Below are positions 20,041 through 54,128 of a stretch of DNA of 64,000 nucleotides, piece by piece. A model generated the notes under the pieces. That model ran no database searches. It was not told where the DNA came from and was given only the letters and a program-made list of their open reading frames with translations. The position numbers were made by a program, and so were the translations under genes. The stretch comes from a virus (Duplodnaviria; Caudoviricetes): the IMG/VR virus record IMGVR_UViG_3300022555_000004. One strand, given 5' to 3'. Within the stretch, counting starts at the first letter, position 1. Every line of letters begins with the position of its first letter.

Positions 20041-20133
20041 TCACTCCTATAAATAGATTGAGAAGGGACAGCAGCAATCACTCCGCTGTTTCCAGTATGC
20101 TGAAACATCTGGATTACCTTCTATTACTATTTA
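20041..20133 (-). ncRNA. Structured leader element, copy A (unnamed three-way-junction motif)
   Basis: Shares GAAGG-UAA-[P2]-AACAGCG-loop-UGCUGU-CCCUUC and terminal UAAAUAG/CUAUUUA with copies at 27773 and 54033. Confidence 0.7.
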
Positions 20134-20140
20134 GAGATTT

Positions 20141-21457
20141 TTATCTGCCAACCTCTGATAGATATTTGTATTTGACTTCATCAAATGTCATACCAATCAA
20201 CCCATCATAAAACAGTATATTATTGTTGTTTTTGCCTTCTTTTACCAATTTTTCAATACGTTTACCAGCATATTTCTTTTTCCAGTAAGCAGATAAGGCA
20301 TCAACTGAATTATCAAATTTTCTTTCACCTAAGTCTTCTGTTTTATTACATAAAAACTCATTGGTATTCTTATATAATTCACAAAAATACACACCACGAC
20401 TAAAATCATTATTGACTGTTTTGACGTTCAGTTCTTTATGTGCCATTGATAATAAACGAGGACGAACATGACTTGCTGGCCCGCCTTTTCTTGGTGCCAT
20501 CAATTCAGCATATTTGACAGGCATATTTTCTTTGATATATTTTTTTATTTCTACATAAACACTTTCTTCTGGTTCAACAGGTATCTTGCCATCAGATGGT
20601 TCACATGATTTATACATTTTTAGTCCGGTATATTGGCTTTTACCACCCTCTTTTACACTTGTATACAAGGATGTTGTTGTAACGCCTGCCAATTTCTCAG
20701 CATATTTGTTATTCCAAAAATCTTCAATAACATTGGATGTTGATAACATAGCAATCAGTTTTCCGCCGGTATAATTATATCCGAATGGTTGTGTTGGAAC
20801 AATAGAACTGGCCATACATAGATAATTCAATTTATGGTCATCCATTTTATTTTTCATTGACCAGCCAATATACTTATCTCGGCCACCAATAGAAATGAAA
20901 TCAGATCCTATTGATATAACACCCAAATACATTTGTGTTTTTTTATCTCTTACAAGAAATTTGCCAAATCTACCGGGCGATTGTGACCATATAGCCGTTG
21001 AGATCATTCTACGCAATATTGTCCATGTAGTTGATAGTTCTTTATTTGTAGCATTAACAACCAACACTTCTGGTTCTAAGTCTATGTAATCATTAGGTTT
21101 TTTAGGTATCCAGATATTATTTTTGATGTCAAGAATTTTTTGTTTATCGCTTATAGACCATTCAATACCATTCAACTCTTGCCATTTACGGTATAGAGTA
21201 TAAGTTTGAACGCCCATTGAAGAAACGAATTTGATATTATCTTGAAACAGTTTTTTCAATGTTTTTTTATCCATTGTATCAGATGATTGTTGTTGTTCGA
21301 TTACTGTTGGTGGTGCCATAGGGAGAACATCTGGAAATGTTTCAATATTTAATTCTTTAGGTTTATTTGGAACGGTTTTTATAATAGGTAATTCTATAAT
21401 TTCCTTTTTTTTTGTGGTCGGCGTATTACCGAAAAACAAATCTAATCCTTTTGCCAT
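20141..21457 (-). CDS. DUF4338 / Druantia DruA-like protein
   Basis: PGR..KFLVRD...YLGVISIGSD..SIGGRDKYIGW...IVPTQPFGYNYTGGKLIA...TTTSLY...SQY. Confidence 0.7.
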   Translation of the reverse strand: MAKGLDLFFGNTPTTKKKEIIELPIIKTVPNKPKELNIETFPDVLPMAPPTVIEQQQSSDTMDKKTLKKLFQDNIKFVSSMGVQTYTLYRKWQELNGIEWSISDKQKILDIKNNIWIPKKPNDYIDLEPEVLVVNATNKELSTTWTILRRMISTAIWSQSPGRFGKFLVRDKKTQMYLGVISIGSDFISIGGRDKYIGWSMKNKMDDHKLNYLCMASSIVPTQPFGYNYTGGKLIAMLSTSNVIEDFWNNKYAEKLAGVTTTSLYTSVKEGGKSQYTGLKMYKSCEPSDGKIPVEPEESVYVEIKKYIKENMPVKYAELMAPRKGGPASHVRPRLLSMAHKELNVKTVNNDFSRGVYFCELYKNTNEFLCNKTEDLGERKFDNSVDALSAYWKKKYAGKRIEKLVKEGKNNNNILFYDGLIGMTFDEVKYKYLSEVGR

Positions 21458-21574
21458 ATATTATCCTTTTATTTTTTAATTTTTCCTTTTACCCAAAAAC
21501 GACTTGGTAGAAATATAATAACAACAAGAAATACCATAGCTAATATTATAAGTATTCTTCCAAGTATTTCCATA

Positions 21575-21964
21575 TTAATTTTTATTATGTAGTATTTCAA
21601 ATGCTTTCTTGATAGCAACTAAATTTCTATCAAGAAATGTTTCGCCGGCATGAAAATATTTAGCATAATCATATTCATCAATAATATCAACAACATCATG
21701 TGTTTTATCAAAATTGTTTCGGTTGATGGTGTATATTTCATTATTTTCGTTTGTAACTAACATGTCGGTTGGTGTCATTCTATATGTTCCGGCAGGTATG
21801 CAAATCAAATAACAGGAATCATTCTCATGCGTTATAGGATATCCTTTGTAAGTAAACGACCACGGCATTCCATTTACAATATTTCCATCGTGTATTATCC
21901 CATACGATACAAGTTCATCAAAGGTAATGGCGTCAACGATATCTGGTTTTTTTATATATTTCAT
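21575..21964 (-). CDS. Phage hypothetical protein (KYIKKP..VDAI family)
   Basis: MKYIKKPDIVDAITF...NGMPWSFTYKG..ITHENDSCYLI. Confidence 0.6.
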   Translation of the reverse strand: MKYIKKPDIVDAITFDELVSYGIIHDGNIVNGMPWSFTYKGYPITHENDSCYLICIPAGTYRMTPTDMLVTNENNEIYTINRNNFDKTHDVVDIIDEYDYAKYFHAGETFLDRNLVAIKKAFEILHNKN

Positions 21965-21974
21965 ATTTACCTCT

Positions 21975-22376
21975 TTAGTATATTGTTTGTTTTTCAGGGT
22001 TTGTGAGAATACGACTTTTTGATTTCATTCGTCCTTGTTTACTTTCAACATTCGACATTCCAAATCCTGATAGTGTTGATAGTCCTTCACAAGCAAGGGC
22101 CACATTTACATATAAATTCATGGCATGATCCCTGTCTGTAATCTTATCAATGCTTTTTCGATACATAATGATACGTTTCTTCAATTGAATGTCAGTATTC
22201 CATTCAATCATTTCCTCCGCCGTATCTAGGGCGCCTTCAATCCATCTAAGAATACCATCTAATGAAAAATATTTTAAGTCTTCCATGCCCAATGATAATA
22301 TATATCCAATTGCATGTGTTCCGTCTTTTATATATCCTTGATACTCACCATTTACTTTTATTCTGATTTCGTCCAC
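21975..22376 (-). CDS. Hypothetical protein
   Basis: In an operon-like run with neighbours. Confidence 0.55.
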   Translation of the reverse strand: MDEIRIKVNGEYQGYIKDGTHAIGYILSLGMEDLKYFSLDGILRWIEGALDTAEEMIEWNTDIQLKKRIIMYRKSIDKITDRDHAMNLYVNVALACEGLSTLSGFGMSNVESKQGRMKSKSRILTNPEKQTIY

Positions 22377-22378
22377 GT

Positions 22379-22900
22379 TTAATCTCCTTTTTTAACAATA
22401 AATACCCTATGGTCTAGGATTAGTTCTAATTCTTTTTCAACATCAGGCCAGTATAATTCACCATTATTACAGCCGGGCTGTGTCAACAAAACCGATTTGA
22501 ATTTACTTCTTTCTATCATTTCCATCAATTCATGCGCCGACCTTTTGATAATTTCTATTTCGGCTTTTAAGGCCCAGCCAGGAATTACGTTTCCATGTAA
22601 CATATTTCTTACAACGCCGGGACACCCTTCTTCTTTTTCCATATCAAATTTATCACGTTTTACGGGAAACGAAACAATATTTGTATGATTATCTGTCCAT
22701 ATTATTGAAACGTGATTACCGTATTGAGCCAATATTTTTCCTAATGTTTTTTTAACAGACGGATATCTTTGTGATGCTTCAAGAGCAATACCACGCCCCA
22801 TAACAGCATGTCCATTAGATGCAACAAAACCATTTGTAGTGACACAAATGGCATCAACTACACCAACAAAATCCCATATGTTACATTTATAACAAAACAT
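22379..22900 (-). CDS. Macrodomain (ADP-ribose binding / hydrolase)
   Basis: CVTTN...VMGRGIA..A..RYP...FPVK...PGCNNG.L.W..V. Confidence 0.8.
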   Translation of the reverse strand: MFCYKCNIWDFVGVVDAICVTTNGFVASNGHAVMGRGIALEASQRYPSVKKTLGKILAQYGNHVSIIWTDNHTNIVSFPVKRDKFDMEKEEGCPGVVRNMLHGNVIPGWALKAEIEIIKRSAHELMEMIERSKFKSVLLTQPGCNNGELYWPDVEKELELILDHRVFIVKKGD

Positions 22901-22929
22901 TCTTTTCCTTTATTTAAAAAACAATTGTA

Positions 22930-23466
22930 TCATATTATCACTAGGTTTGTCAAGTTTTTTACATATTTTGTTGTGGTGAATGGTGGTTTATCACAATCTT
23001 TTCTTACACCCTTAGCTACCTGTTCCTTCCATACGCAATCAACATCTTTAGGATATCCACTTCTATTCCATTCAAAAGGCGATGTGGCTATTATCTTTTT
23101 CCATTCTTTTTTATCACATAATGGATATACATATCTGAATTGAAGCCCAAAGTATTTTACAAGACCCATTGAAATTGTGACGACATGTCCTTTATAAACT
23201 TGCCTATTTCTATATGGATAAACAACTGTATATAAATCAGAATTTTCTGGATCATCTTCAACGGATAATTCATGACATAATACTAAATCTGTTGAATATA
23301 CCATGCTTGTTTCCATATGAATACAATTGGCATCATCCAAAAAATCCATTGAAGTGTAACGTGGGAGAATACCGGGCATCAGGTAACGTATCATTCCATG
23401 TCCTCCGCTGTCATATAAACTACGTTCTGCCATTTGTCGAATTTCTTTTGTAAAATGTACTTTCAT
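22930..23466 (-). CDS. Hypothetical protein
   Basis: Follows the polymerase gene on the same strand. Confidence 0.55.
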   Translation of the reverse strand: MKVHFTKEIRQMAERSLYDSGGHGMIRYLMPGILPRYTSMDFLDDANCIHMETSMVYSTDLVLCHELSVEDDPENSDLYTVVYPYRNRQVYKGHVVTISMGLVKYFGLQFRYVYPLCDKKEWKKIIATSPFEWNRSGYPKDVDCVWKEQVAKGVRKDCDKPPFTTTKYVKNLTNLVII

Positions 23467-23475
23467 ATGTTCCTA

Positions 23476-27766: not shown

Positions 27767-27772
27767 TTGGTT

Positions 27773-27863
27773 CACCTCATAAATAGATGTGGAAGGGACA
27801 GCAGCAAACCTCACGCTGTTGATTGTGTGTTTCAGCACCAATCTTACCTTCTACATGTATTTA
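27773..27863 (-). ncRNA. Structured leader element, copy B
   Basis: GAAGG-UAA-GAUUG..CAAUC-AACAGCG-UGAGGUUUGC-UGCUGU-CCCUUC. Confidence 0.7.
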
Positions 27864-27871
27864 GAGAAAAA

Positions 27872-30296: not shown

Positions 30297-30595
30297 TTAT
30301 TCATCTCCTGTTCAATATATTTTTTAATTGTTTCGCCATGACATCGTTTCGGAGCACACCAACAAAACAAATTTAATTGATGATATGTTTTATATATTTC
30401 AATCAATCGTTGTAATTCATCTTTCAACATCAAAATATTTTCATCAAACCATTTTTCATACATATCACAAACCAAATCACGTTCACTTTCATTGTATAAA
30501 ATGTATGGGTTGCCCAGTATTGATTTAGTTCTACATATTTTAACATCCCAAGGTTCTTTGGGCTTTTCTTTTGAAAGATTTTTGATTTTTATCAT
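30293..30595 (-). CDS. DUF4326 family protein
   Basis: ICR..SILGNPY...R..VC..YE.WF...L.CWCAPKRCHG. Confidence 0.85.
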   Translation of the reverse strand: MIKIKNLSKEKPKEPWDVKICRTKSILGNPYILYNESERDLVCDMYEKWFDENILMLKDELQRLIEIYKTYHQLNLFCWCAPKRCHGETIKKYIEQEMNK

Positions 30596-31392
30596 TTTTT
30601 ACACCAACCTTGTATTGTTCCATCAGGAATATTCATTATTTCTGATATCTTTTTAAAAACCATGCCCTGTTTTCGTAAAGAAACAGATTGTAATATTATT
30701 TCATCCGAATATTTTCGATGAGCTTTTCCCATTTTTTCCCTTGTTTCTTTTGATGGCCTTATACCAGTATGGCTTTCGCCTATTTTTTGTCTGGTTTTTT
30801 CTGAATGAATTCTTCCTTTACCAGCACTACTTATTTTTTCCCTTGTTTCTTTTGAAAATTTTCTGTTTTTTGCTCGTTCACGCATTTTTTCTCTTGTTTC
30901 TTCTTTTATATCGTGTTTTTTTCGCATTTTTTCTTTTGTTTCTTCTGTAAATATTTGAAATTTTCTTTTTTCTTTTATTTTGTATTTTGTTTCTTCTGAT
31001 ACATAATGTCCTTTAAGTTTTTCACTAATCTTCTTTTTTGTTTCATTTGAACATATGGCGCCAGGGCATCCGCCACCAGCATCATTTTTATTAAACAGAG
31101 GCCCTGTTTCTTTGTTTAATCTGCCTATTGTTTTTACCATCTTTCGTTCTAGTGCTAGTGATACATTTTCAAACAAATCTTTTTTATAAAAAATAATATT
31201 TGGGGTTTTTATTTCTTGTACCATAAATAGAAAATCTTTATTCGTGCCGTGCCCTTTTAAATGAACATACGCCCTGTCACCATTACCTTTACCCACATAA
31301 AATGGTTCATATTCAAATTCATATTCGCCATAAACATAGTTGCCTGGTTTACGGGGATCAAGATATACATAAACATAAAAATTATCTGACAT
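30592..31392 (-). CDS. GIY-YIG (LEM3-like) homing endonuclease with NUMOD3 repeats and C-terminal HTH
   Basis: YVYVYLDPRKPG...PFYVGKG; SKETREK repeats; start MSDNF at 31392. Confidence 0.85.
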   Translation of the reverse strand: MSDNFYVYVYLDPRKPGNYVYGEYEFEYEPFYVGKGNGDRAYVHLKGHGTNKDFLFMVQEIKTPNIIFYKKDLFENVSLALERKMVKTIGRLNKETGPLFNKNDAGGGCPGAICSNETKKKISEKLKGHYVSEETKYKIKEKRKFQIFTEETKEKMRKKHDIKEETREKMRERAKNRKFSKETREKISSAGKGRIHSEKTRQKIGESHTGIRPSKETREKMGKAHRKYSDEIILQSVSLRKQGMVFKKISEIMNIPDGTIQGWCKK

Positions 31393-31403
31393 TATACACT
31401 CCC

Positions 31404-31440
31404 TCAATTCTAGTATTCTAATGACTATTTATAGAATTGA
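31404..31440 (-). promoter_or_regulatory. Late promoter inside a hairpin next to the RBS (T4 I-TevI-like control)
   Basis: tcaattcta/tagaattga inverted repeat encloses TATAAATA (31426-31433) and abuts a GGGAG RBS. Confidence 0.65.
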
Positions 31441-31636
31441 GCCAATTTTTAGCAAATTGATAATCTGTGGTGCCGCCATATTCTTTAGGGTTTAATACTT
31501 GTTCTTTGTCATCGGCTGTTGATTCCATTATACAATTACATACAATTTCATATAGTTCTAGCCGATTGAGTCTGTGTAATGAAAAATCATTGATTGATTC
31601 TGCGATTGATGAATAAATACATACTTTCCGTTTCAT
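31418..31636 (-). CDS. Small hypothetical protein
   Basis: AGGAG RBS upstream. Confidence 0.5.
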   Translation of the reverse strand: MKRKVCIYSSIAESINDFSLHRLNRLELYEIVCNCIMESTADDKEQVLNPKEYGGTTDYQFAKNWLNSINSH

Positions 31637-32160: not shown

Positions 32161-32586
32161 TTATCTTCTTCTCACGTTTCCTCTTGCCCCTGATTGTTGC
32201 CCTCTGTTCCGTGCAATCGGATCGGCCACAACTTCTGCCATTTTTCTTGTATCATTAGATATTGCCGCATCATTCATCCATTGTTCTTGCTCACAACTAT
32301 CATACATTTTTAGGTTACGGGCATCGGTATAAAATTTATCAACAACACCAACACGACCACCTAACCGATTCTTTACTATCTTATAAAATAATTCACTTTC
32401 ATATATTGCCTTATCTTCGCCTGAACCAAATATGGCAACAAAGTCGGCGGTTGCCGCTACACCAATACTATTTTTGGTCAATATACCATTGGCATAAAAT
32501 AAGTGGTTATTTGAAACTTCAATATCCATACATTCTTGCTGGCCCAATTCTTCTATTGAAACTATTTCATCATCATACTGTATCAT
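32161..32586 (-). CDS. gp41: gp41 helicase C-terminal part preceded by split-intein C fragment (Int-C, 39 aa, 32470..32586)
   Basis: DEIVSIEELG..ECMDIEVSNNHLFYANGILTKN, then SIGVAATADF...KIVKNRLGG. Confidence 0.9.
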   Translation of the reverse strand: MIQYDDEIVSIEELGQQECMDIEVSNNHLFYANGILTKNSIGVAATADFVAIFGSGEDKAIYESELFYKIVKNRLGGRVGVVDKFYTDARNLKMYDSCEQEQWMNDAAISNDTRKMAEVVADPIARNRGQQSGARGNVRRR

Positions 32587-33806
32587 ATACTTTCCTCTAT
32601 AAAATTCATTACATTTTTCATTTCTTGTTCTCTGTCTTTATATGACCATATAACATAATATTTAAATCCAAGTTTTTCAGCAATATCTTTTCTCTTAGTA
32701 TCAATATCATTTTGTGTTTTATATGATATTCCATATGGCGACACCCAACTGTTCCTTTGTTCTTCCGTCAATATATCCGCTGGATGCCATCTATCACCAT
32801 GATATTCTATTATTATTTTTTTTGGTCTTATAGTAAAATCATATCTAAAATAGTATAATGTTGAATGAGCAAGGAAAAATTCTTTAGACCCTTCTATTCC
32901 TACATAAATATCATCTGGTGAAATTTTATATTTTTCTATCAACCATGTCCTCAATGGATTGAAATATTCTAGCGATTGTTTTGATGCTTTACAAACAAAT
33001 CCATCATTTTTTGTATGTGTTTTCATCTGTGTTATTTGTCTTTTATAACACATTTCTTCCCATTTTTCAACCCATTTCTCACCATATTTTTTCTCAAACA
33101 TATCCTTAGATTGGATTGATTTTACTGTTATTTCTTTTTGTTTTTGTATAGCTGTTTCATAATCAAAACCACGATATAACCAATAGTCTAGCGTATTTGG
33201 TATGTTTATTCTTGGATGATTATGTTTGACTTTTTGTGAATTTTTATTCATTGATGTATTATGGTTTTTAGCTAGATATATAGCATCATCAATAGAATAC
33301 CCCTTTTTAGTCCAATATTCTTTACACATAAGGGATCTTTCTTTTTGTGGTATAGGGCCTTCTCTTTCTACTTTCTTTGTCTGTGATATAGATAATTTTT
33401 TCTTATATTCTATAATCTGCTCTTTGCCATCTATTTCACCAAACTTATCTGTGTATCGCTTATTGATGTTTAGTTCACCAAGAAAATGATTATACTTCTC
33501 GGTTCCTTCTGACATACCAAATTGAAGAATAAACATATTTAAATTTCTTTTTTTTCTTTCATTACCAGGCATTGAAGATAATATATGAAAATTTTTCTTG
33601 ATATCTATCACATCAGCGTATTTTATAAGTCTTGCCAGTGTAATAACATTTGTTACATAAAGACTATCCCATGTTAAAATTATATCATTTATAATTTCAA
33701 CCTTTTCTTCGTCTATCTCAATATCACCAATTTCTCTTTTCCATACAACACTACTAAATAAATAGTTCTTTTTACTTTCCTTATCCATTGAAGATAATTT
33801 TGACAT
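32583..33806 (-). mobile_element. Free-standing endonuclease (PD-(D/E)xK / Vsr-like) between the split-intein halves
   Basis: YW.K.G repeats; RYDFTI..KKIIIEYHGDRWH; own late promoter TATAAATA at 33841-33848 and GGAGG RBS. Confidence 0.8.
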
Positions 33807-33843
33807 TGGTTCCCTCCAACAACTGAATTCGTTATAATTGTAT

Positions 33844-35217
33844 TTATAAAGAATTCAAAAAATTACCAACTTTTAATCCAGTTTTTATATTTTTGAACCC
33901 ATCAGATGTAGGAAACTTATGGTCTGCTGAACATATAATTTCTTTACCACTTTTTGTTTTTATTTTATACATTTTTTTAATTTTTTTATTGAAAACTCTG
34001 TTTACAGATACATTGCCATCGCTGCCTTTGATAATATCACCTTTTTTGAGATTACATATCTTTTCATTTTTATATGTTTTTCCATCCCACATCAACACAT
34101 CGGTATCTAATGACAAACATTCTGAAATGAACGTGAAATCAACTTCATCAAATGTAATGTTCATTCCTTCTCTGTTCAACTGGCTTACTGATACAACCGG
34201 CATCAAAAACTCAAACGATAATGCTCGTAGTTCTTCGGCTATAGATTTTACATCAGAATACATTTCACCTTTTGTTCTATATGCCGGTTTCATAAGATTC
34301 AAATAATCACATATGAAAATATCTGGTTTGATGCCACGAATCAACAATTCTCTAATATATTTTCGATAATCATCAACTGTGGCCTTGCCGGTAGGATATT
34401 GTTTGATATATAAATTTCCGCGTGTTGTTGATGCCTTCAAAACATCCAATGAACGAACCAATTTAGATTGTAATGGACGTTCTCTATACATTTTATTGAT
34501 ATCAAGTAACGATAGAATTGAGTCAAATCTTTGTGCAAAGGCTTCTTCTGACATTTCAAGTGAGGCTAATATGACATTTTTTCCGGCCATAACCTCTCTA
34601 GCCGCCATGTTAGCTAAGAATGTTGATTTGAACCCATGAATACGTGCCACCATTACAGACAATGTATATGGGGGAAATCCGCCTGATATATATTCGTCTA
34701 ATACAGGGAATCCTGATGGTATACGTATTTCACTTCTTGTGAAAATCTTTGTAAGTCGTTCATCAAGTGTGCCAAAATAATCAAGACCTAAATCAATTTT
34801 TAGGTCTTTACTTATGGCATCTTCTACCAATCGCCGTATCATTCCAATATCTTCTTTCTTATTGATAACATCGACTGATGATAATATTGCTTTTTTGACA
34901 GCTTTTTCTTTCAAATATTCGTTAGTGCTGGTGAATAAGAAATCATAATTATTGATGTAGTCAAAATCCGTTGCATCAATTTCACGAAAAAAATCTGCAA
35001 CATCAGTTGATCCTTCTTTATCAAATTCACTGATGATTGCTACTCTAGGTGGGATATTCTTATATTCTTGAAAATGTTTGATACTGTAATCATATATTTT
35101 TGACGCTGTTTGATTATCAAAATACTCTTTGTCGAATACAGACGATAGTGTTGCTATGTATTGTGGGTCTACCATACACCCTTTGATGATAAGATGTTCT
35201 AATAAAACAGATTCCAT
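33844..35217 (-). CDS. gp41: gp41 DnaB-like replicative helicase N-terminal part plus split-intein N fragment (Int-N, 91 aa, 33844..34119)
   Basis: ARIHGFKS (Walker A), SLEMSE, ICDYLNLM, VSVSQLNR; then FISE|CLSLDT...CSADHKFPT...GLKVG stop. Confidence 0.92.
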   Translation of the reverse strand: MESVLLEHLIIKGCMVDPQYIATLSSVFDKEYFDNQTASKIYDYSIKHFQEYKNIPPRVAIISEFDKEGSTDVADFFREIDATDFDYINNYDFLFTSTNEYLKEKAVKKAILSSVDVINKKEDIGMIRRLVEDAISKDLKIDLGLDYFGTLDERLTKIFTRSEIRIPSGFPVLDEYISGGFPPYTLSVMVARIHGFKSTFLANMAAREVMAGKNVILASLEMSEEAFAQRFDSILSLLDINKMYRERPLQSKLVRSLDVLKASTTRGNLYIKQYPTGKATVDDYRKYIRELLIRGIKPDIFICDYLNLMKPAYRTKGEMYSDVKSIAEELRALSFEFLMPVVSVSQLNREGMNITFDEVDFTFISECLSLDTDVLMWDGKTYKNEKICNLKKGDIIKGSDGNVSVNRVFNKKIKKMYKIKTKSGKEIICSADHKFPTSDGFKNIKTGLKVGNFLNSL

Positions 35218-35797: not shown

Positions 35798-36235
35798 TTA
35801 TGCCTTCCCATTACATGACATAATAAAAGCGTATGATGATTGTTTACAATTCTTTTTACATTTTATACAAATTTCATTGAGTTTGGCCCAAAACTGTTTG
35901 GCTGTTGGATGTGTATCTGTTCCATTTTCTGTCTTTTCAAATACAATAGGAACATCTTTGATATATAAACTTTGTATCTTGAATTTGGTAAGAAATTCCT
36001 CTGCTTCACCTTTTGTCTTGGTTTTTTTCATCCATTGTTTTAGTGTAAGATATTCCTGTGTTTCAGTAACATCAGATAGCTTGTTTATTTGTTTGGTTTT
36101 TCGTAATTTATCTTCTTTGATAGTGCCCGTAAACCATTTATTCGATTTTTTATATACGATTTTTGCGTTCATATTACCCTCACTTTCAAAAATATTATAC
36201 CATAATTGAATCAAAATGTCAATAAATGGTGCCAT
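35798..36235 (-). CDS. Hypothetical protein (true start probably MNAKIVY)
   Basis: GAGG RBS before MNAK; promoter TTGACA-17-TATAAT at 36194-36222. Confidence 0.55.
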   Translation of the reverse strand: MAPFIDILIQLWYNIFESEGNMNAKIVYKKSNKWFTGTIKEDKLRKTKQINKLSDVTETQEYLTLKQWMKKTKTKGEAEEFLTKFKIQSLYIKDVPIVFEKTENGTDTHPTAKQFWAKLNEICIKCKKNCKQSSYAFIMSCNGKA

Positions 36236-36302
36236 AGGTGGGAATAGAACCCACGTTGACGGCGTTTTAGAGGCGCCCGCTTAACCACTCAGCTACTACG
36301 GC
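36227..36302 (-). tRNA. tRNA with CUA anticodon (amber suppressor type)
   Basis: 76 nt. Acceptor GCCGUAG/CUAUGGC plus ACCA; D-arm GCU-GAGUGGUUA-AGC; anticodon arm GGCGC-CUCUAAA-ACGCC (C31.A39 mismatch); T-arm GUGGG-UUCUAUU-CCCAC; anticodon at 36268-36270. Confidence 0.88.
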
Positions 36303-39255: not shown

Positions 39256-40023
39256 TTATTTAAATAATGTTATTCCTATTTCGCTCTCTACGTCAATAAG
39301 TAGGCATTCACTGCCTATCCAGACTTCTACATCATCCCCAAAATATTTATCAGGGGCCATAAGTCTAAATTCATGTTCTTTAGGATCTAATAGATTACTA
39401 AGAAAATCAATGAGTTTTGTTTTGCCTTTATTATATATTCTCAAATAATCAATATCATAATCGTCATTGTAAATTAGATCACCATTATCTCTAATTTTAT
39501 CAATATCACTACATGCAATTTTAAATTCTTTGTAATTTACATCCCAAAATTCATCATCTATTTCTACTCGTCCTTGTTGTAGAAATTCATGTAAGTCACT
39601 ATTAAAATTATTCATATTATAACTAAATGATTGAAATGAATACCATATATCATTAGCTGGGCATACAGCTATTTTAGCACTATTTGTTGGGATAACATAA
39701 TACGGATGTTTACGATGTGCTCGTCTTTCGGCATTATTAATATCGGTTGTACAGATAATAGATTTGTTTCTTTTAGGATATGATGACCATGATGGTAAAT
39801 TACTCAAAAGCAAGTTGTAATAGTTATGGTCAGCATATGGACTTGTTCTTTCATCAAAATCTGATGGGGTTATAGTATAGTAATTTTCTGTATAGTCATC
39901 AACACCACGATATATTGGTTGCCCTTTCAATGCTTTTGAACAATATTTTTCAAGATAATGTTGGGCAAACTGATATGTTACTTCATTTCTTCTGGCTTCA
40001 TTGATAAAAGTTTTTAATCTCAT
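39256..40023 (-). CDS. ADP-ribosyltransferase-like paralog 1 (capsid-targeting-like N-terminus)
   Basis: MRLKTFINE; IYRG, ICTTD, VEVW. Confidence 0.6.
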   Translation of the reverse strand: MRLKTFINEARRNEVTYQFAQHYLEKYCSKALKGQPIYRGVDDYTENYYTITPSDFDERTSPYADHNYYNLLLSNLPSWSSYPKRNKSIICTTDINNAERRAHRKHPYYVIPTNSAKIAVCPANDIWYSFQSFSYNMNNFNSDLHEFLQQGRVEIDDEFWDVNYKEFKIACSDIDKIRDNGDLIYNDDYDIDYLRIYNKGKTKLIDFLSNLLDPKEHEFRLMAPDKYFGDDVEVWIGSECLLIDVESEIGITLFK

Positions 40024-40790
40024 AAGTTTTCTTCCAACCTAAAACTTTCCCCTAATTTACTAGACGTATCAATTAAAATACATGGGCTATCTGTCCATAC
40101 TTCATTATCGCCGCCCATATTTTCGCCAACATTTACTAATTTGAATCCATTTTTTTCAGGGTCTAATATGTCATTCAAATATTTGATAAATGGTATATCA
40201 CCTTCAATATACTCGCTAAATATGTTATAATCATCAGGATCAAGATTTTTTATTTTATCAAGTTCCAAACAATCTTTTACAAAAGAAGAAAAATCCACTT
40301 GACTTCGTTTTCTAAATATACCATTATCACGAAATAAACTATATATGGTATCATTTAAATCTGACAGGTCATACCACCCCTCAAATGCATCTCTAAATCC
40401 ATCCCAAATATCATCTCTAGGGCATACCCCTATTTTAGCACCATCGACAGGCAAAACATAATGGGCGATTCCTCTGCCACGATTTGAAGCATTTTCATAA
40501 TCAGTCGTACATATAACTGACTTATTTCTTTTTGGATATTGTGACCATGCTGGCAGATTACTCAATAATAGATTGTAATAATTTTCATCAGCAAACGGAC
40601 TTTTTCTCTCACCAAAATTCTTAGGATTTGTAAGGAAATATTCACCATCAATATGCCTATTCCCTCTATATATTGGATACCTTGTTATACTTGATAATGC
40701 TTTTTTACAATGTCTTTCAATATAATGTTGGGCAACTGAATAACTAATATGTTCTGACCTATTTTCATTGATAAATGTTTTTAATCTCAT
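40020..40790 (-). CDS. ADP-ribosyltransferase-like paralog 2
   Basis: MRLKTFINE; IYRG, ICTTD, NEVW. Confidence 0.6.
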   Translation of the reverse strand: MRLKTFINENRSEHISYSVAQHYIERHCKKALSSITRYPIYRGNRHIDGEYFLTNPKNFGERKSPFADENYYNLLLSNLPAWSQYPKRNKSVICTTDYENASNRGRGIAHYVLPVDGAKIGVCPRDDIWDGFRDAFEGWYDLSDLNDTIYSLFRDNGIFRKRSQVDFSSFVKDCLELDKIKNLDPDDYNIFSEYIEGDIPFIKYLNDILDPEKNGFKLVNVGENMGGDNEVWTDSPCILIDTSSKLGESFRLEENL

Positions 40791-41464: not shown

Positions 41465-42333
41465 TATCCAAATCCTAGATCTTTTATCGTAAAACCGCTG
41501 TAATATCCATTAGAACCATTAGATGGAAGTAATATTCCATAATAATAATTACATTTGAACATCATTTCATTTTTATTACCACCTTTTAAATAGGTATGTA
41601 AATTCCTATCTTGGTATGTTTCGACCACATTTTCTAATGAAGGATCACGTGAGTCCATCCATTCTTCTTCGGATACAACAGGCACCCATAAATATGTTTT
41701 ACTTATTTGCAAATCATCTTCATCTACATATATATCTATTTTCATTCCATTATAACTATATGTAGCATAATCAGAATTAGCATATGGAATATCATATTTT
41801 TCAGCAAACTTCTCATTTGTTTCCTGATCAATCCAATCACCAATATATGAAAAGGGATCATATTCATCATATAATGTTTTATTTTCAAAATAATCTGAAT
41901 ATAGATCTTCATAATTAGGCGACCAAACATATTTATAACCATTTACTGGGAAAAATACATATATTTTTCCATATGATTTTGCTACCGTTGAAGAAGATGA
42001 AACAAAAACTCCTTCTGATCTAGGACGCCATCCAAATATATCCTCAAAAAGATCATCAATACTTCTTTGATCAGATGGATCTGTGTCTTTAGGTTTTCTA
42101 TCATTTCTAGGAATTATTTTATATACATTATCAGAAATAGTTTCCCTTCTTGATGTTTTTGTTCCTCTATATAAAAGTTTGTTAGTCAAAGCATATTCTT
42201 TTACTATATCACTACATTCATGTTTTATTTTACTAATAACCTCTCTGTCCAATGAAAATTCAACATCACCATGTTTTACATTTATTTTCATATCTGGAAA
42301 TAATTCTTGTTGCATATGTTTATTCAATCTCAT
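41464..42333 (-). CDS. ADP-ribosyltransferase-like paralog 4
   Basis: Start MRLNKHMQQE at 42333; LYRG, FVSSS, NEMM; FGWRPRSE. Confidence 0.55.
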   Translation of the reverse strand: MRLNKHMQQELFPDMKINVKHGDVEFSLDREVISKIKHECSDIVKEYALTNKLLYRGTKTSRRETISDNVYKIIPRNDRKPKDTDPSDQRSIDDLFEDIFGWRPRSEGVFVSSSSTVAKSYGKIYVFFPVNGYKYVWSPNYEDLYSDYFENKTLYDEYDPFSYIGDWIDQETNEKFAEKYDIPYANSDYATYSYNGMKIDIYVDEDDLQISKTYLWVPVVSEEEWMDSRDPSLENVVETYQDRNLHTYLKGGNKNEMMFKCNYYYGILLPSNGSNGYYSGFTIKDLGFG

Positions 42334-43079
42334 AATAGATTTGCCCCTACTTTTACTAATACACAAGGATCTGAAATCCAAATTTCACGATTTGGTGGTA
42401 TGTTATTTCCAGCCCTTACTAATGAAAAATCACAAGCATCTGGATCCATAAGATAATCAATAAAACCATAAAATGTTTTTCCACTACCCATATATGATAC
42501 AAAAAAGGGCATAGCATACTTATATCTAAAAGCCTTGATATCCATTTCTTTTATAATTAACTCTTTATTTTTATCTATTAGTTTGAATATTTTTACCATA
42601 TTAGGAAAATCATAATCTGCTCTAGTAACACATATATAATCTGATTCAACCACTATGCCGGTAATTTCTGAAATATCTTCAAATGAATATTGTAATCTTT
42701 TAGATCCCCAAATGTCCATATATGGGCATACCCCAACCTTTCCACCATTTATTGGGTATACATTATAAACATCCCCGAATCCATCGGAATATTCAGAATC
42801 GGTTGAACATATAATAGATTTACTTCTTTTTGGATATTTTGACCATTTTGATGAATTATCCATCATCAATGTATAATAATTAGATGTACTGGCTGACCTT
42901 CTAAGATCTTTAGATTTTGATGGATCAATATAAGCAAAATCACCATATCCACCAACACCACGATATATTTGAACTTTACTAACAAAGGCATCAGCATGGT
43001 CAGTTCGTAATAATTCACGGGCTTCTTCTTTGGTAATTGGTTTGCCTCTTTGTTTTTCTACGTATTCATTTAATCTCAT
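42330..43079 (-). CDS. ADP-ribosyltransferase-like paralog 5
   Basis: MRLNEYVE; IYRG, ICSTD, REIW. Confidence 0.6.
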   Translation of the reverse strand: MRLNEYVEKQRGKPITKEEARELLRTDHADAFVSKVQIYRGVGGYGDFAYIDPSKSKDLRRSASTSNYYTLMMDNSSKWSKYPKRSKSIICSTDSEYSDGFGDVYNVYPINGGKVGVCPYMDIWGSKRLQYSFEDISEITGIVVESDYICVTRADYDFPNMVKIFKLIDKNKELIIKEMDIKAFRYKYAMPFFVSYMGSGKTFYGFIDYLMDPDACDFSLVRAGNNIPPNREIWISDPCVLVKVGANLL

Positions 43080-46329: not shown

Positions 46330-46331
46330 CG

Positions 46332-48221: not shown

Positions 48222-48223
48222 TA

Positions 48224-48433: not shown

Positions 48434-48443
48434 TGACGTTTTC

Positions 48444-49030: not shown

Positions 49031-49055
49031 TATACACCTCTCACATTCAAAAGTA

Positions 49056-49812: not shown

Positions 49813-49823
49813 TTTGATACCTC

Positions 49824-50474
49824 CTAAATTGTACCTTCATAATATCCAACTACATCAGATGGATTCCAAATATTTTCATTACTTTTTATTTGATTTACAT
49901 ATCTCAATTTACCACAAAGGCAAGCATCGAATCCAGTGGTTGCTTCTTTGTTTATTTGTCCGCCCCAACCACCGCCAAATTGAAAATATCTATATTTACC
50001 AATTCGTATATTCATTGAAAAATATGGTATTGGTATATAGTGCCAAAATGAAGCAGCAAATTGAATAAAGAACATACTATTACAATATTTTGTATACCAT
50101 TTATTCCAAATACGAAGATCAGCAATTACATATTTTTTTCCTTTCCACATAAGTTTTCTATCACCCATAGGGACAGACCAACAATTATTTATAGGTTCCT
50201 TTTCATCATAAGGAAGATATCCCATTCTCAAATTCAATAATGAATATGGTTTTACATTTTTGAATACAAACGGCGGAACTGTATCTCGTAATACCTCTGC
50301 CGGATTACGGACAAAATCTTCAAGATTACTTGATTTACCATAAATGTAGGTGTCAAACCATTTCCATTTTCTACAAAAAGTAATCAACGATTGAAACCAT
50401 TTCATTTCCCAAATATGCATTTTAATCCCCTCCATCAACTTCATCTTCATCATAGTCATTTTCAACAAAATCAC
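49824..50474 (-). CDS. Trp/Tyr-rich hypothetical protein (start probably MHIWEMKW)
   Basis: GGAG RBS before MHIW. Confidence 0.5.
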   Translation of the reverse strand: MILLKMTMMKMKLMEGIKMHIWEMKWFQSLITFCRKWKWFDTYIYGKSSNLEDFVRNPAEVLRDTVPPFVFKNVKPYSLLNLRMGYLPYDEKEPINNCWSVPMGDRKLMWKGKKYVIADLRIWNKWYTKYCNSMFFIQFAASFWHYIPIPYFSMNIRIGKYRYFQFGGGWGGQINKEATTGFDACLCGKLRYVNQIKSNENIWNPSDVVGYYEGTI

Positions 50475-51243
50475 TGGTTGTAATTCTATACTTTTCTAAT
50501 AAACACGGGCTTTCTGTCCATACCTCTTTATTTCCAGGCAATTTATCGCCAATCTTTTTTATCATAAATCTATTTGCTGGTAATACATTTCTAAATGCTT
50601 CAAGAACAGGCACACCTTTCTTAATTTTTATCAATATGTCATCAACTTGTTTAGGACACCAAATATGTTCATCACGAAATTTAATAATATCTATATGTTC
50701 TTTATCTGCTTTATTAATCTTATCAAACATTTCTTTTAATACATTTGGTTTAGTTTCATTTGATTCTATCGAAATATCAAAAACATTGAGTATCATTCTA
50801 ATCATTTGATTCATTTCTGGCATACTATAATCAAACGACCCCCAAAAATGATTTGCTGGTGTTACACCAAGTATGGCGCCATCATACGGATATACTTGAT
50901 ATAGTGATCCCCAATCAGACCCACCACTTTTGCTTGTCGAACATATAACAGATTTGGAGAATTTAGGATATTTCTTCCATTGAGATAAAAGTTCCATCAA
51001 TAACATATACCAATTTTGTGTATATTCAGATACTCTTGTATGTTGAGATGGATCAATGAATAAATATGGAACATTTTCCATTTTACTAATACCACGATAT
51101 AATGGTGAATGCATAGAATGTTTACAATGTTTTTCTTTCAATTCTAAAAACATATCTTCTGTTATAGGAACTGAACGATGTTTTTTTCCTTCTAATCTAT
51201 CATTATTACCATATTCAAGTAAGAAATTATTTAATCTGCTCAT
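50422..51243 (-). CDS. ADP-ribosyltransferase-like paralog 6
   Basis: MSRLNNFLLE; LYRG, ICSTS, KEVW; YPK.SKS.IC shared with paralogs 1, 2 and 5. Confidence 0.6.
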   Translation of the reverse strand: MSRLNNFLLEYGNNDRLEGKKHRSVPITEDMFLELKEKHCKHSMHSPLYRGISKMENVPYLFIDPSQHTRVSEYTQNWYMLLMELLSQWKKYPKFSKSVICSTSKSGGSDWGSLYQVYPYDGAILGVTPANHFWGSFDYSMPEMNQMIRMILNVFDISIESNETKPNVLKEMFDKINKADKEHIDIIKFRDEHIWCPKQVDDILIKIKKGVPVLEAFRNVLPANRFMIKKIGDKLPGNKEVWTESPCLLEKYRITTSDFVENDYDEDEVDGGD

Positions 51244-52040
51244 TTTACTCCAAGGATATGTTCATTAGGATTTATAAAATTATACCAATGCATCGGGTCA
51301 ATAGTTTTCTCAAAAAATAATGGAACATATGTTTTTGGTTTTATAATCTCTATTGGTTCTATTGTTTTAGTTGATTTCACATACCAAAATCGTTGACCGT
51401 CCGGCCCTAATCTATATTGTTGTGAATACTTATAAACCTTTTCCCCATATGAATAATTTACATCACAAAAGGATAACCATTTTGTTTTAGCTTTATCAGT
51501 ATATACACCACCACGAACACAATATTTTTTCATCTCTGTGTTGTCGCATACAGTTCCACCACGTTCACTTTCATAAAAGAACCAATATCCACCATTATAA
51601 AATCTGTATACATCGGCTAAATTTTCACCACATATATCTTTATACTTAGAAGGATATCCTTTATTCTTGTTCTTACCTACTGTAATTGATTGTTGATTAA
51701 ACTTTTGTGTTCTAATCAACATGATATAATACGACTGAGCACGTATAGAACTTTGTACATTATATGGGTCAATGGTAATATATTTTCTTATTTCGGCCGT
51801 TACTCCTGTTGATGGTGTGAATTGAAATAATCCAATGCCCCCATCAAATGATACTAAATCACCACGGCAGGATGTTTCAGTTATAGCACATCCGATATTA
51901 TACCACCAAGGAAAACTAGGGCCATTATATTGTATACCATATGCCCGTATATCTGGCAAATAATCTTGACATCTATCCTTAGCAACGGATGAAAAAGGCA
52001 ATAGTGCCATAAGTAGTATAAGTAACCATTTTTTAATCAT
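51240..52040 (-). CDS. Lytic transglycosylase (SLT-like) endolysin with signal peptide
   Basis: TETSCR...GGIGLFQFTP.T...YNGG; signal MIKKWLLILLMALLPFSSVA. Confidence 0.8.
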   Translation of the reverse strand: MIKKWLLILLMALLPFSSVAKDRCQDYLPDIRAYGIQYNGPSFPWWYNIGCAITETSCRGDLVSFDGGIGLFQFTPSTGVTAEIRKYITIDPYNVQSSIRAQSYYIMLIRTQKFNQQSITVGKNKNKGYPSKYKDICGENLADVYRFYNGGYWFFYESERGGTVCDNTEMKKYCVRGGVYTDKAKTKWLSFCDVNYSYGEKVYKYSQQYRLGPDGQRFWYVKSTKTIEPIEIIKPKTYVPLFFEKTIDPMHWYNFINPNEHILGVK

Positions 52041-52543
52041 TAGTTCTCCAATACCATAAGTTGAACATCTGTTACTATGCCCTTATACGGCGTTCCAAGT
52101 GGGACAAATCCTAATTTTTTATTGACAATCAACGATGCTTTGTTCGTTACTCTTATTGTAGCATATATGCCTTGATTGTTTACCTTAACAAACAATTTCT
52201 TTTTCAATAATGTATTATATCCTTTTCCTCTGCTCGATGGATCAGTAAATGAGAATCCAACTTCATATGGATAGTCATCAGCGTAATCTTCAACACCGGC
52301 TTTTCTGAAAATGTCAAAATCACCCTCTTTTAGTGAAGTGACTGCCTTGATTGCCGACCCTTCAAATAGAAATCCTACCCAAATCAATTCTTTGAATGAA
52401 TTTTTGACGTGGGCAGGCGTGTTCTGATCACCTGATACTACGAGGTCAATAAATTTTTGACGGTCTTCTAGGGAACATTCAGACGGTTTTTGTATAACAA
52501 TTTTTACATTGCTTTGTTCTGTTATATATTGTTGTAATCTCAA
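52040..52543 (-). CDS. GNAT acetyltransferase with capsid-targeting-like N-terminus
   Basis: TTG start gives MRLQQYITE; SRGKGY, N.AS..VN.KLGF. Confidence 0.75.
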   Translation of the reverse strand: MRLQQYITEQSNVKIVIQKPSECSLEDRQKFIDLVVSGDQNTPAHVKNSFKELIWVGFLFEGSAIKAVTSLKEGDFDIFRKAGVEDYADDYPYEVGFSFTDPSSRGKGYNTLLKKKLFVKVNNQGIYATIRVTNKASLIVNKKLGFVPLGTPYKGIVTDVQLMVLEN

Positions 52544-52547
52544 TGGT

Positions 52548-52871
52548 TTATCCGCCTCTTGCCCACGCAAAGATTATTGTTACATACCAAGCAATAATCA
52601 ATAGATTGTTTGACCAATCCTTTTCTAATGCAAAATTGATATATGGGAATATGATTTTTCGTGATATATGAGCATGAATGATACCAGCAGATACAAATAC
52701 TAATTTACTAAAGAAGATACTGATTAGTCCTAGTTTTGCTGTAGCGGGTAATATAACATCAGGAGCAAAAAATGCTATCAAGAATACACCTAATAACATC
52801 AAGGCATCAATTGATATTCGTTTTATAAAATCAAATTTAGATATTTTTGCTTCATCTTTTTTATCTGACAT
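52548..52871 (-). CDS. Putative holin (three TM)
   Basis: Three hydrophobic helices, HISRKIIFPYI; upstream of the SLT gene. Confidence 0.65.
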   Translation of the reverse strand: MSDKKDEAKISKFDFIKRISIDALMLLGVFLIAFFAPDVILPATAKLGLISIFFSKLVFVSAGIIHAHISRKIIFPYINFALEKDWSNNLLIIAWYVTIIFAWARGG

Positions 52872-52913
52872 AACACACCTCTTTACACTAATTTATTTCA
52901 TATCTTTATTTAT

Positions 52914-52953
52914 AAAAAAAAACACTAAAGAAACGAAACTTCCTTAGTGTTTT
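52914..52953. terminator. Putative bidirectional intrinsic terminator
   Basis: aaaaacactaa...ttagtgttttt inverted repeat with A/T tails. Confidence 0.5.
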
Positions 52954-52974
52954 TATATATGATATGTGTTTATT

Positions 52975-53181
52975 CTATTTCGTTGCCTGCTTATATAATC
53001 TAATAATCGAAACTCCTACACATAATAGTAACCAACCAATCATGAACATAGGCGATGTTCCAAACCAACTATCCATCTTCAATCCAACAAAGGTGAATAA
53101 CATTGTGCTTAATACCATTATAAACGACCAAGCACTCAACGAATATACTTTCTGCATTATGTTTCTTTGTGTGTTATTCAT
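52975..53181 (-). CDS. AtpZ/AtpI (ATPase gene 1)-like two-TM protein
   Basis: FVGLKMDSWFGTSPMFMIGWLLL; ATG 53181 overlaps the endonuclease stop. Confidence 0.7.
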   Translation of the reverse strand: MNNTQRNIMQKVYSLSAWSFIMVLSTMLFTFVGLKMDSWFGTSPMFMIGWLLLCVGVSIIRLYKQATK

Positions 53182-54028
53182 AATATCCTCCGATATTTTT
53201 ATGTACTTCACACATTTTCTTTTTTGTTTCTTCGTTATGTTTTTTACCATACATACCATTTTTACACCCTCTACAGGATTCACTAATCTTTCTTTTTGTT
53301 TCTTCTGTATGTGTTCTTCCTTTCATAATCTCACTATGATGTTTTCTTTGTTCTTCTGATATTATCTTTCCTTTATGTCTATCACTCATTTTCTTTTTTG
53401 ATTCGGTTGTATGTTTACGACCCTTACCAGACTTACTCATTTTCTGCTTTGTTTCTTCTGATACTTCTATACCTTTATGTGACTCACTCATTTTCTGCTT
53501 TGTTTCTTCTGAAGCAAAATGTTTTCCTTTATTGGATTCGCTTATTTTCTGTCGTGATTTTTCTGATAGTATCCGTTCTTTTGCGTATATACTAGCCGCT
53601 TGTTTTATCCTTAGTTTTATCTCATCCGTTCTATTTTTATACGCCTCTCTCATTTTTTGTTTTGCATCATCTGTATGACATATACCAGCCATTCCTCCAC
53701 TAATTGTGTCAACAAAATTACATAGAGGGCCTGTATTATTGTTTTGTCTACCAACAGCTCGGTTTATTTTTCCTTCTAAAACAAATGCATCATATTCATT
53801 TAAATGTTCTGTATGAAAAATAATTAAAGGCGTGCCTATCTCTTTTATTTTATTACTGAAATCTTTATTATAACATCTTTTCAAATGACTATGCGCCCGT
53901 CCATTACACCCTTTACCTACATAGAATGGTTCATAACCAAACTCATATTCACCATACACATAGTTACCAGGCTTACGTGGATCAAGATATACATAGACAT
54001 AAAAAATATTTTCTTCTGGGTTACACAT
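53174..54028 (-). CDS. GIY-YIG (LEM3-like) homing endonuclease with NUMOD3 repeats
   Basis: YVYVYLDPRKPG...PFYVGKG; SEETKQKMS repeats. Confidence 0.85.
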   Translation of the reverse strand: MCNPEENIFYVYVYLDPRKPGNYVYGEYEFGYEPFYVGKGCNGRAHSHLKRCYNKDFSNKIKEIGTPLIIFHTEHLNEYDAFVLEGKINRAVGRQNNNTGPLCNFVDTISGGMAGICHTDDAKQKMREAYKNRTDEIKLRIKQAASIYAKERILSEKSRQKISESNKGKHFASEETKQKMSESHKGIEVSEETKQKMSKSGKGRKHTTESKKKMSDRHKGKIISEEQRKHHSEIMKGRTHTEETKRKISESCRGCKNGMYGKKHNEETKKKMCEVHKNIGGYYE

Positions 54029-54032
54029 AGAT

Positions 54033-54128
54033 TACCTCACTATAAATAGAATTGGAAGGGACAGCGGATACCTCACGCCGTTGCTTGTGTGGTCTCAACA
54101 CCAAGCTTACCTTCTATATCTATTTATA
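54033..54128 (-). ncRNA. Structured leader element, copy C
   Basis: TATAAATA..GAAGG-UAA-GCUUG..CAAGC-AACGGCG-UGAGGUAUC-CGCUGU-CCCUUC..CUAUUUAUA. Confidence 0.7.

Follow-up and report, generated by a model that had tools for sequence, protein, structure and literature searches.

Free-standing homing-endonuclease genes of an uncultured phage were found to be preceded by a conserved, covarying three-way junction (P1-P2-P3), and this element is the 5' end of a mobile cassette, a module that is gained, lost and swapped together with its endonuclease gene. It is an undescribed RNA family, present in neither Rfam nor the literature searched, and is best explained as a module that regulates free-standing homing-endonuclease cassettes from their 5' end, within a clade of uncultured T4-like phages. 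As to how such a module would work, the reading we prefer, at a probability of about 45% as judged from sequence, is a late antisense RNA whose loop would pair with the ribosome site and limit endonuclease translation.

As shown in Table 1, the window, which is the whole 64,000-nt stretch of phage DNA analysed (IMG/VR record IMGVR_UViG_3300022555_000004), carries three copies of the element, all on the minus strand and at the positions given in the preliminary description. A gapped pattern anchored in the two invariant ends gave exactly three matches in the window versus 0.00 expected (100 shuffles), and a covariance model run over the whole window with filters off recovered the same three copies (88-95 bits, E about 1e-17) and no further match. 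The association with GIY-YIG genes that had been proposed holds for copies B and C, whereas the gene of copy A is only a remnant and the wider family is not limited to GIY-YIG: the genes following the element encode homing endonucleases of at least four types (GIY-YIG, HNH-like, LAGLIDADG and phrog_559 type). The copy B endonuclease gene lies directly upstream of a family B DNA polymerase gene, and a search for syntenic loci using the N-terminus of this polymerase confirmed no relative.

Table 1 Positions of the element and its associated features at the three loci of the window.
Copy	Feature	Position	Strand	Remark
A	5' box TCTAAATA	20128..20135	-	late-promoter-like, sense, 6 nt before P1
A	three-way-junction core	20062..20121	-	P1 (GAAGG/CCTTC), P2, P3
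A	P3-loop copy of ribosome site (TIR-1)	20078..20084	-	GGAGTGA
A	perfect TATAAATA	20048..20055	+	antisense, 3' arm of inverted repeat, 6 nt from P1
A	gene's own SD region (TIR-2)	20041..20047	-	GGAGTGA
A	gene, 61-aa remnant	19853..20035	-	GIY-YIG N-terminus fused to HTH
B	5' box TCTAAATA	27858..27865	-	sense
B	three-way-junction core	27792..27851	-	
B	P3-loop copy (TIR-1)	27808..27813	-	TGAGGT
B	antisense box CATAAATA	27778..27785	+	
B	own SD region (TIR-2)	27774..27779	-	TGAGGT
B	gene, homing endonuclease, 216 aa	27116..27766	-	GIY-YIG (LEM-3-like) + NUMOD3
C	5' box TATAAATA	54121..54128	-	sense
C	three-way-junction core	54055..54114	-	
C	P3-loop copy (TIR-1)	54069..54076	-	GTGAGGTA
C	perfect TATAAATA	54041..54048	+	antisense
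C	own SD region (TIR-2)	54033..54040	-	GTGAGGTA
C	gene, homing endonuclease, 284 aa	53174..54028	-	GIY-YIG + NUMOD3

The family was enlarged to 57 distinct copies by pattern scans and the covariance model. A first loose pattern scan gave mostly chance matches, so patterns requiring the TAAATA box were used instead, and the three matches in genome contigs looked like chance. All 57 copies came from uncultured phage or metagenome DNA of lakes, sediments, digesters and sludge, and the five public sequencing runs listed with a match were all DNA, from lake or freshwater metagenomes. The element was absent from cultured phage records, in which blastn in distant mode gave short chance matches only. 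Comparison with Rfam 15 at the gathering threshold gave a single tRNA as the only match in the whole window, and when the three loci were compared at E up to 10, the element remained without a match, hammerhead and the int-alpA motif RF02996 included. The proposed novelty with respect to known ribozymes and riboswitches thus holds, and together with the strong covariation in 57 copies the lack of an Rfam match supports a new, structured RNA.

The compensatory changes in the P2 arms of the three window copies were exactly as first described. In the 57 copies, 97.3% of helix cells were paired, with double changes in 16 of 18 pairs, values reached by none of 500 shuffles, and sliding of the helix partners lowered pairing to 38-50%. 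P1 covaries too, in rare variants (GAGAG/CTCTC, TAAGG/CCTTA); P1 and the junction strands (UAA, AA, CUGUC) are almost invariant, and P2 and P3 vary freely. Wobble pairs occupied only 15 of 1025 helix cells, 11 of these in one terminal pair, and were no commoner than A-C cells. The predicted stability of the core was similar for the sense and antisense strands (-20.5 versus -19.0 kcal/mol), and this similarity and the near-absence of wobbles suggest that both strands can fold. P3 has two registers: the inner one, the sole register open to the antisense strand, shows pure Watson-Crick covariation, and the outer one is conserved through G-U wobbles that are possible on the sense strand only. Such double constraint fits two functional strands.

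TAAATA boxes had been noticed on both strands and were confirmed, with two T4-type late boxes facing each other and bracketing the junction 5-7 nt from P1, a spacing found on both sides in 49 of 56 copies. The TAAATA core was retained in 54-56 of 56 copies on each strand, and the full TATAAATA was perfect in 48/56 sense boxes (86%) and 30/56 antisense boxes (54%). Imperfect boxes deviated at the first two positions only, and natural T4-like late promoters also vary at these positions, C at -12 being known, for example, in the CTAAATA of Aeh1 (PMC1524935); counting such variants, 55 of 56 copies have a candidate sense late box. Since a T4-type late box spans -13 to -6 (PMC1524935), the box-P1 spacing puts the predicted transcript start, on either strand, at the first base of P1, and we infer that late transcripts would start inside the structure, without its 5' arm. 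In the window, 7 of 21 occurrences of TATAAATA fall 5-110 nt before a correctly oriented start codon versus about 8% by chance, and four lie 33-35 nt before an ATG, making this box a plausible promoter in this phage. A sigma-70 promoter scan around the three copies gave no site on the element.

As first described, the words in the P3 loops of the three copies recur just 5' of each ATG. The P3 loop (TIR-1) repeats the gene's own SD and about 4 spacer bases (TIR-2), and sits 36-43 nt upstream of TIR-2. This correlation persisted in the enlarged set, where the longest word shared by loop and own site averaged 7.9 nt versus 4.8 nt for the sites of other copies, a difference equalled in 0/2000 permutations. 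In one subfamily, the bases after GGAG are TTAC, TTGT, CAAA, CTAA or TGAA, with loop and site agreeing each time, and these four matched bases lie outside what the ribosome's anti-SD reads. The complement of the shared word had only scattered chance matches on the sense strand from -1500 to +2500, and no partner was found there. A weak reverse-complement excess between the P2 loop and the start region (4.80 versus 4.50; 9/2000) was dropped, because it arises where the conserved CACACA of P2 meets ATGTGT gene starts.

In the antisense reading, the sense box would direct a late endonuclease mRNA carrying the junction at its 5' end, and the antisense box a small RNA folding as the mirror junction, whose P3' loop would display the complement of the ribosome site. 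This loop could pair with the real ribosome site (about -11 kcal/mol; -10.8 kcal/mol computed for the duplex) as well as with the loop copy, and the anti-site was 78% unpaired in the predicted antisense fold. Pairing of this kind would limit translation of a potentially harmful nuclease, and selection would keep loop and ribosome site identical because the opposite strand of the loop is the only partner that changes automatically with it. We propose, with somewhat more reserve, a candidate design in which each cassette would carry a private antisense brake that is self-matching: the 60-nt junction would be transcribed from both strands by a pair of facing late promoters, and the loop copy would make the opposite strand encode the anti-site. 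This privacy would not extend to every gene, since TGAGGT is common to copies B and C. The loop copy may also be a decoy or a weak CUG start. Several observations count against antisense action. Perfect boxes are scarcer on the antisense strand (54% versus 86%), and the antisense box lacks the T-rich run that lies 5' of six other late boxes in the window; no terminator-like site was found after the element on either strand around the three copies; and a plainer arrangement would be an RNA that simply overlapped the ribosome site. At 33 of 50 loci, a co-oriented gene lies upstream and the antisense RNA would extend into its 3' end. Conservation of the 3' box could also reflect no more than its pairing with the invariant 5' box, as the T4 paradigm has it.

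That paradigm leads to the main rival reading, a sense-only leader, which we consider somewhat unlikely. T-even endonuclease genes (I-TevI, I-TevII, I-TevIII, segB and Aeh1 mobE) combine a late promoter with RBS-hairpin control (PMC2988022). Like their leaders, the element places a TATAAATA late box just 5' of a selfish nuclease gene within an inverted repeat, its structure ends beside the SD, and late transcripts would be without the 5' arm. On this account the endonuclease gene would have the 5' box as its late promoter; in early or middle read-through RNA this box would pair with the 3' arm, and the closed structure abutting the SD would damp translation; late transcripts would begin at P1 with the site free and the junction as a 5' stabiliser; and the loop copy would serve as a decoy or standby site for ribosomes, or as a further weak start (loop SD, junction NUG). 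The window's fourth GIY-YIG gene (30592-31392) has such a classical leader, a 10-bp hairpin with its 5' arm over the late box and its 3' arm over the SD, resembling those of I-TevI, segB and mobE (PMC2988022).

At the element itself, the outer stem of 5' box and 3' arm was predicted in read-through RNA with a mean pair probability of 0.71, and the SD was predicted to be less accessible in read-through than in late transcripts (0.34 versus 0.46). However, this effect is small, and the SD begins 0-3 nt past the last stem, outside every predicted stem, so that the predicted read-through folds show no SD paired within a hairpin as in T-even leaders; the seg43(25) hairpin of Aeromonas phage 25 likewise abuts the SD without containing it (PMC2988022). 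Unlike T-even leaders, the element leaves the SD unsequestered, holds between its arms a covarying three-way junction with invariant junction bases, repeats the ribosome site in one loop, has a second late box facing the first and is common to four nuclease types. The sense-only wobbles of the outer P3 register agree with a leader, as does the junction codon, which is CUG in 53 copies, AUG in 2 and UUG in 2. At one locus (L158), a complete LAGLIDADG reading frame runs on without a break from the junction CUG, and it lacks any other start or a second ribosome site. A leader peptide or N-terminal extension from the junction CUG was rejected as a general feature, because the in-frame excess (29/56) was not significant after relatives were collapsed (10/22, p = 0.16), and distances showed no 3-nt periodicity. 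Furthermore, P1-P3 are almost without wobbles, which is unusual for an RNA working from a single strand, and a sense-only leader gives no reason for the copy-by-copy match of the loop to the gene's own spacer bases.

That the element might be the end of a mobile cassette, as had also been suggested, was borne out at other loci. A related phage (L122) has an empty site from which the whole element is missing. Two loci (L159 and L179) with flanks 97-100% identical show no differences across the 5' box and GAAGGTAA, beyond which they diverge in P2, P3, ribosome sites and endonucleases, so that the crossover of this cassette swap falls within the element, at its conserved 5' end. In T4-type phages, PeSL cassettes, in which a promoter and stem-loop mark variable-cassette borders and crossover points, are a precedent (PMC2839356, PMC4122927), and the element likewise acts as a crossover point at such a border. 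Unlike the element, PeSLs flank genes of many kinds and combine early promoters with a simple terminator-like hairpin; the element has a three-way junction and late boxes, is tied to homing endonucleases, and in scans around the three copies showed neither an early (sigma-70 type) promoter nor a terminator-like hairpin. A mainly DNA-level, PeSL-like recombination module, with conserved ends providing homology for swaps between loci and phages and the RNA features secondary, would account for the L159/L179 swap and for one element before four unrelated nuclease types, and a DNA hairpin would fit Watson-Crick-only covariation too. Yet we regard it as improbable: recombination by homology can do without a covarying three-way junction or a loop that follows the ribosome site, and after a crossover in the conserved 3' region (CTGTCCCTTC) loop and ribosome site would no longer belong together, yet they stay matched, suggesting that selection acts on the pair. 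A self-cleaving ribozyme, riboswitch or protein-binding RNA with the conserved junction as its active or binding core is very improbable: although the junction strands and P1 are almost invariant with P2 and P3 free, and GAAAC after P2 and GUC before P1 recall part of the hammerhead core, the hammerhead CUGANGA strand is absent (J1/2 is UAA only), no Rfam ribozyme or riboswitch matched at E up to 10, and the loop match would be left unexplained.

The preferred antisense reading has relatives among known systems. RNA-OUT of IS10 is a small structured antisense RNA whose promoter faces that of the gene and which limits the transposase, its loop starting the pairing with RNA-IN at the translation start region. 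The element, as proposed here from its letters, would likewise be a selfish element limiting its own enzyme by an antisense RNA from a facing promoter; RNA-OUT overlaps the real ribosome site, whereas the overlap of the element covers only the copy and leaves the real site outside. The c4 antisense RNA is reportedly excised from the same sense transcript, and its loops are said to pair with short target words present twice in the mRNA, one at a ribosome site. The element would be like c4 in setting the loops of a small RNA against twice-occurring words, and unlike it in that the complementary loops can be obtained from the opposite strand only. The c4 RNA belongs to phages P1 and P7 (Citron and Schuster 1990, as cited in PMC12197685). 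In the T4-like cyanophage S-PM2, the expressed antisense RNA CfrI overlaps a homing endonuclease gene (Millard et al. 2010, as cited in PMC2984593 and PMC12197685), and so, as related in PMC2984593, provides a precedent for antisense RNA over a free-standing homing endonuclease gene in a T4-like phage. As summarised in these citing papers, CfrI is about 225 nt long and links psbA to the endonuclease gene, and their accounts of it describe no three-way junction or ribosome-site loop, unlike the element. CfrI and the element have no sequence relation.

To our knowledge, control that keeps selfish nucleases harmless to the carrier phage is known for a handful of T-even examples only. The family described here is widespread and travels with four unrelated nuclease types, and its loop and ribosome site covary by identity rather than by complementarity, which is rare. 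If the antisense reading is true, the element would be a compact, portable and re-targetable translation brake and would clearly illustrate how regulation co-evolves with a mobile gene; its antisense design would have the target outside the overlap, with the match kept by selection, and would be common to four unrelated nuclease families. The element also provides a simple marker for endonuclease cassettes in phage metagenomes.

Inspection of the window confirmed the three minus-strand copies of the element reported in the preliminary description, and a gapped pattern on both invariant ends gave three matches in the window against 0.00 expected. In all three copies, the 5' half consisted of a TAAATA-containing box, a 5-6 nt spacer and the invariant GAAGGTAA, followed in the middle by P2 (a variable hairpin), AA and the P3 hairpin, while the 3' half comprised the invariant CTGTCCCTTC, a 5-6 nt spacer and the box in reverse complement, then the SD and ATG. 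The element had been proposed to be new, and searches of Rfam gave no match to it, either at the gathering threshold across the window or with E values up to 10 at the three loci. No Rfam model and no description of it was found in Rfam and the papers searched; the nearest known systems are partly alike in action, but none has a junction loop mirroring the ribosome site. The window is approximately the entire 64-kb IMG/VR record, with an estimated completeness of about 39%, and carries T4-like replication genes, including those for a family B DNA polymerase, a replicative helicase that is DnaB-like, as is T4 gp41, a PHROG 224 SSB assumed to be gp32-like, and a second DNA helicase. The element copies and other features of the window are listed in the table.

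Coordinates of the element copies and other features of the window
Feature	Position	Strand	Observation
Element copy A, core	20062-20121	-	Before endonuclease gene
Element copy B, core	27792-27851	-	Before endonuclease gene
Element copy C, core	54055-54114	-	Before endonuclease gene
Repeat array	1-2785		Very long; spaced in multiples of 9 nt (family D1 with 91 copies); both strands have open frames >800 aa that contain it; resembles a triplet-repeat protein, collagen-like or other
438-aa gene directly upstream of copy A	20141-21457	-	Match to Druantia protein DruA family (PF14236, E 2.4e-16), a defence-system protein family, here in a phage
Family B DNA polymerase, 1223 aa	23476-27147	-	Gap separates exonuclease and polymerase matches; weak intein-splicing match at residues 230-534 (E 0.006); may contain an intein
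Fourth GIY-YIG/NUMOD3 endonuclease gene (30592-31392) with leader	30592-31445	-	No three-way junction; leader of classical T4 type with a 10-bp hairpin, 5' arm overlapping a TATAAATA box and 3' arm overlapping the SD
TATAAATA box in inverted repeat	33800-33860	-	34 nt before ATG of gene 32583-33806, within a perfect GAATTC...GAATTC inverted repeat
tRNA gene	36227-36302	-	CUA anticodon; tRNA-Pyl by ARAGORN, Rfam 52 bits; would read the amber stop codon
Three paralogous genes	39256-40790, 42330-43079	-	About 250 aa each; common DNA stretches 70-75% identical (repeat families D6, D14, D15)
Three small ORFs	60142-61160		Fill the site that holds element and endonuclease at L138, a locus in another contig; flanking genes the same as at L138, 70-77% identity

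Single-sequence folds and RNAalifold agreed on a three-way junction. The covariation first noticed among the three copies held in the model-fitted alignment, where 16 of the 18 pairs changed on both sides (210 cells) and 97.3% of cells were paired. These values were reached by none of 500 shuffles, and sliding the partners by 1-3 columns lowered the pairing to 38-50%. P1 was near-invariant, and the exceptions, GAGAG/CTCTC and TAAGG/CCTTA in two divergent copies, covaried. Wobble pairs occupied just 15 of 1025 helix cells, 11 of them at the terminal pair of P3, and were no commoner than A-C cells, so that either strand can form the helices equally well. P3 had two registers. The inner one showed pure Watson-Crick covariation and is the sole register possible on the antisense strand. 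In the outer one, shifted by 3 nt, the invariant CUGU pairs with ACAG, ACGG, AUGG or AUAG; this register is kept only through G-U wobbles of the sense strand, and was favoured by individual sense sequences in single-sequence folds.

A covariance-model search, suggested when the element was first described, was run together with pattern scans and extended the family beyond the window. Viral, metagenome and genome collections were scanned with patterns and then searched with covariance model R1, which together gave 74 matches representing 57 distinct sequences, all from uncultured phage contigs or metagenomes. Named sources were activated sludge and one TARA ocean sample, the sequencing runs containing the window's DNA were freshwater and lake metagenomes, and the element was absent from cultured phage records, where blastn in distant mode gave just short matches attributable to chance. 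The genes 3' of the element included GIY-YIG genes from several subfamilies (36), phrog_559-type genes with CapR and treble-clef repeats (seven), LAGLIDADG genes (two), and also HNH or endonuclease VII-like genes. Several, including that of window copy A, were decayed remnants of 21-61 aa, before which the element was still intact.

Comparison of loci indicated that the element is the 5' end of a mobile endonuclease cassette, one of the readings offered in the preliminary description, and an empty site and a swap bore this out. At L138 the upstream gene's stop codon is directly followed by the box, and at the homologous site in L122 both element and endonuclease are missing and the next gene begins at once. 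The L138 site and its counterpart in the window constitute a hyperplastic locus. In another pair of contigs, L159 and L179, the flanks were 97-100% identical and the identity continued through the 5' box and GAAGGTAA, after which P2, P3, the ribosome sites and the endonucleases all differed. The crossover therefore fell within the conserved 5' end, and TIR-2 and the gene were transferred together with P2 and P3 as a single unit. Throughout the family, the distance from the upstream stop codon to the start of P1 was mostly 14-28 nt.

The P3 loop had been described as repeating the SD of each gene, and in every informative copy the loop word (TIR-1) indeed equalled the SD of its own gene plus about four following bases (TIR-2), 36-43 nt away. 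The longest word common to loop and site averaged 7.9 nt for the own site versus 4.8 nt for the sites of other copies, and 0 of 2000 permutations reached the own-site mean. The match extended past the SD: GGAG was followed, within one subfamily, by TTAC, TTGT, CAAA, CTAA or TGAA, identical between loop and site each time. Such spacer bases are outside the reach of the 16S anti-SD, so a sequence-reading agent must keep TIR-1 and TIR-2 together. The reverse complement of the shared word gave only scattered chance matches on the sense strand from -1500 to +2500.

Nolan et al. (PMC1524935) give the T4 late promoter as TATAAATA, spanning -13 to -6, and position -13 is poorly conserved in T4-like phages, Aeh1 having CTAAATA (PMC1524935). 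In the window, 7 of 21 TATAAATA motifs preceded a correctly oriented start codon by 5-110 nt, against a chance expectation of about 8%, and four of these were 33-35 nt upstream of ATG. On the element, the box was perfect in 48/56 copies on the sense strand and 30/56 on the antisense strand; variants changed only at the first two positions, and the TAAATA core was kept in 54-56 of 56 copies on each strand. The box-to-P1 spacing was 5-7 nt on both sides in 49/56 copies, and a transcript of either strand would therefore start at the first base of P1. Elsewhere in the window, the classical leader of the fourth endonuclease gene suggests that late-only endonuclease translation would already be a theme in this phage, and the box within the GAATTC repeat indicates that promoter-in-hairpin leaders extend beyond endonuclease genes here.

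A leader acting on the sense strand only is the main alternative, which we regard as rather unlikely. Such a leader accounts for the boxes and their location beside the SD, but leaves the copy-specific match of loop and site unexplained, and in the predicted folds the SD was never within a stem. What keeps it alive is the junction codon, which was CUG (53 copies), AUG (2) or UUG (2), 4-11 nt downstream of the loop SD. In L158, a locus of another contig, a complete two-domain LAGLIDADG frame (534-1205, minus strand) is continuous with the junction CUG; neither ATG, GTG nor TTG precedes the first motif, and a second ribosome site is lacking. An identical element occurs in L176 with a different gene behind it. 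Judged from its sequence, L158 would represent either translation that initiates at CUG using the loop SD or else a dead fusion. The in-frame excess of the junction codon was not significant family-wide with relatives collapsed.

We tentatively favour an antisense RNA whose loop, displaying the anti-site, would limit endonuclease translation. The opposite strand was taken as the partner because it alone changes automatically with the loop. The antisense box would start an RNA folding into the mirror junction, with a predicted core stability of -19.0 versus -20.5 kcal/mol for the sense strand. The anti-site, 78% unpaired in the predicted antisense fold, would pair with the real ribosome site in a predicted duplex of about -10.8 kcal/mol, within the range of known antisense seeds. 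The antisense reading would account for the loop-site identity, the scarcity of wobbles, the two P3 registers and the second box. T4-like phages make antisense RNAs over endonuclease genes, as exemplified by CfrI of S-PM2 (PMC2984593). Scans around the three window copies revealed no evident terminator. The 3' box could serve only to pair with the sense box, and the resulting outer stem, which follows the T4 paradigm, was predicted in the read-through RNA with a mean pair probability of 0.71. Because of the missing terminator, the weaker antisense box and this possible pairing-arm role, we place the antisense reading at a probability of about 0.45. It is consistent with the logic of a selfish element, which would throttle its own enzyme.
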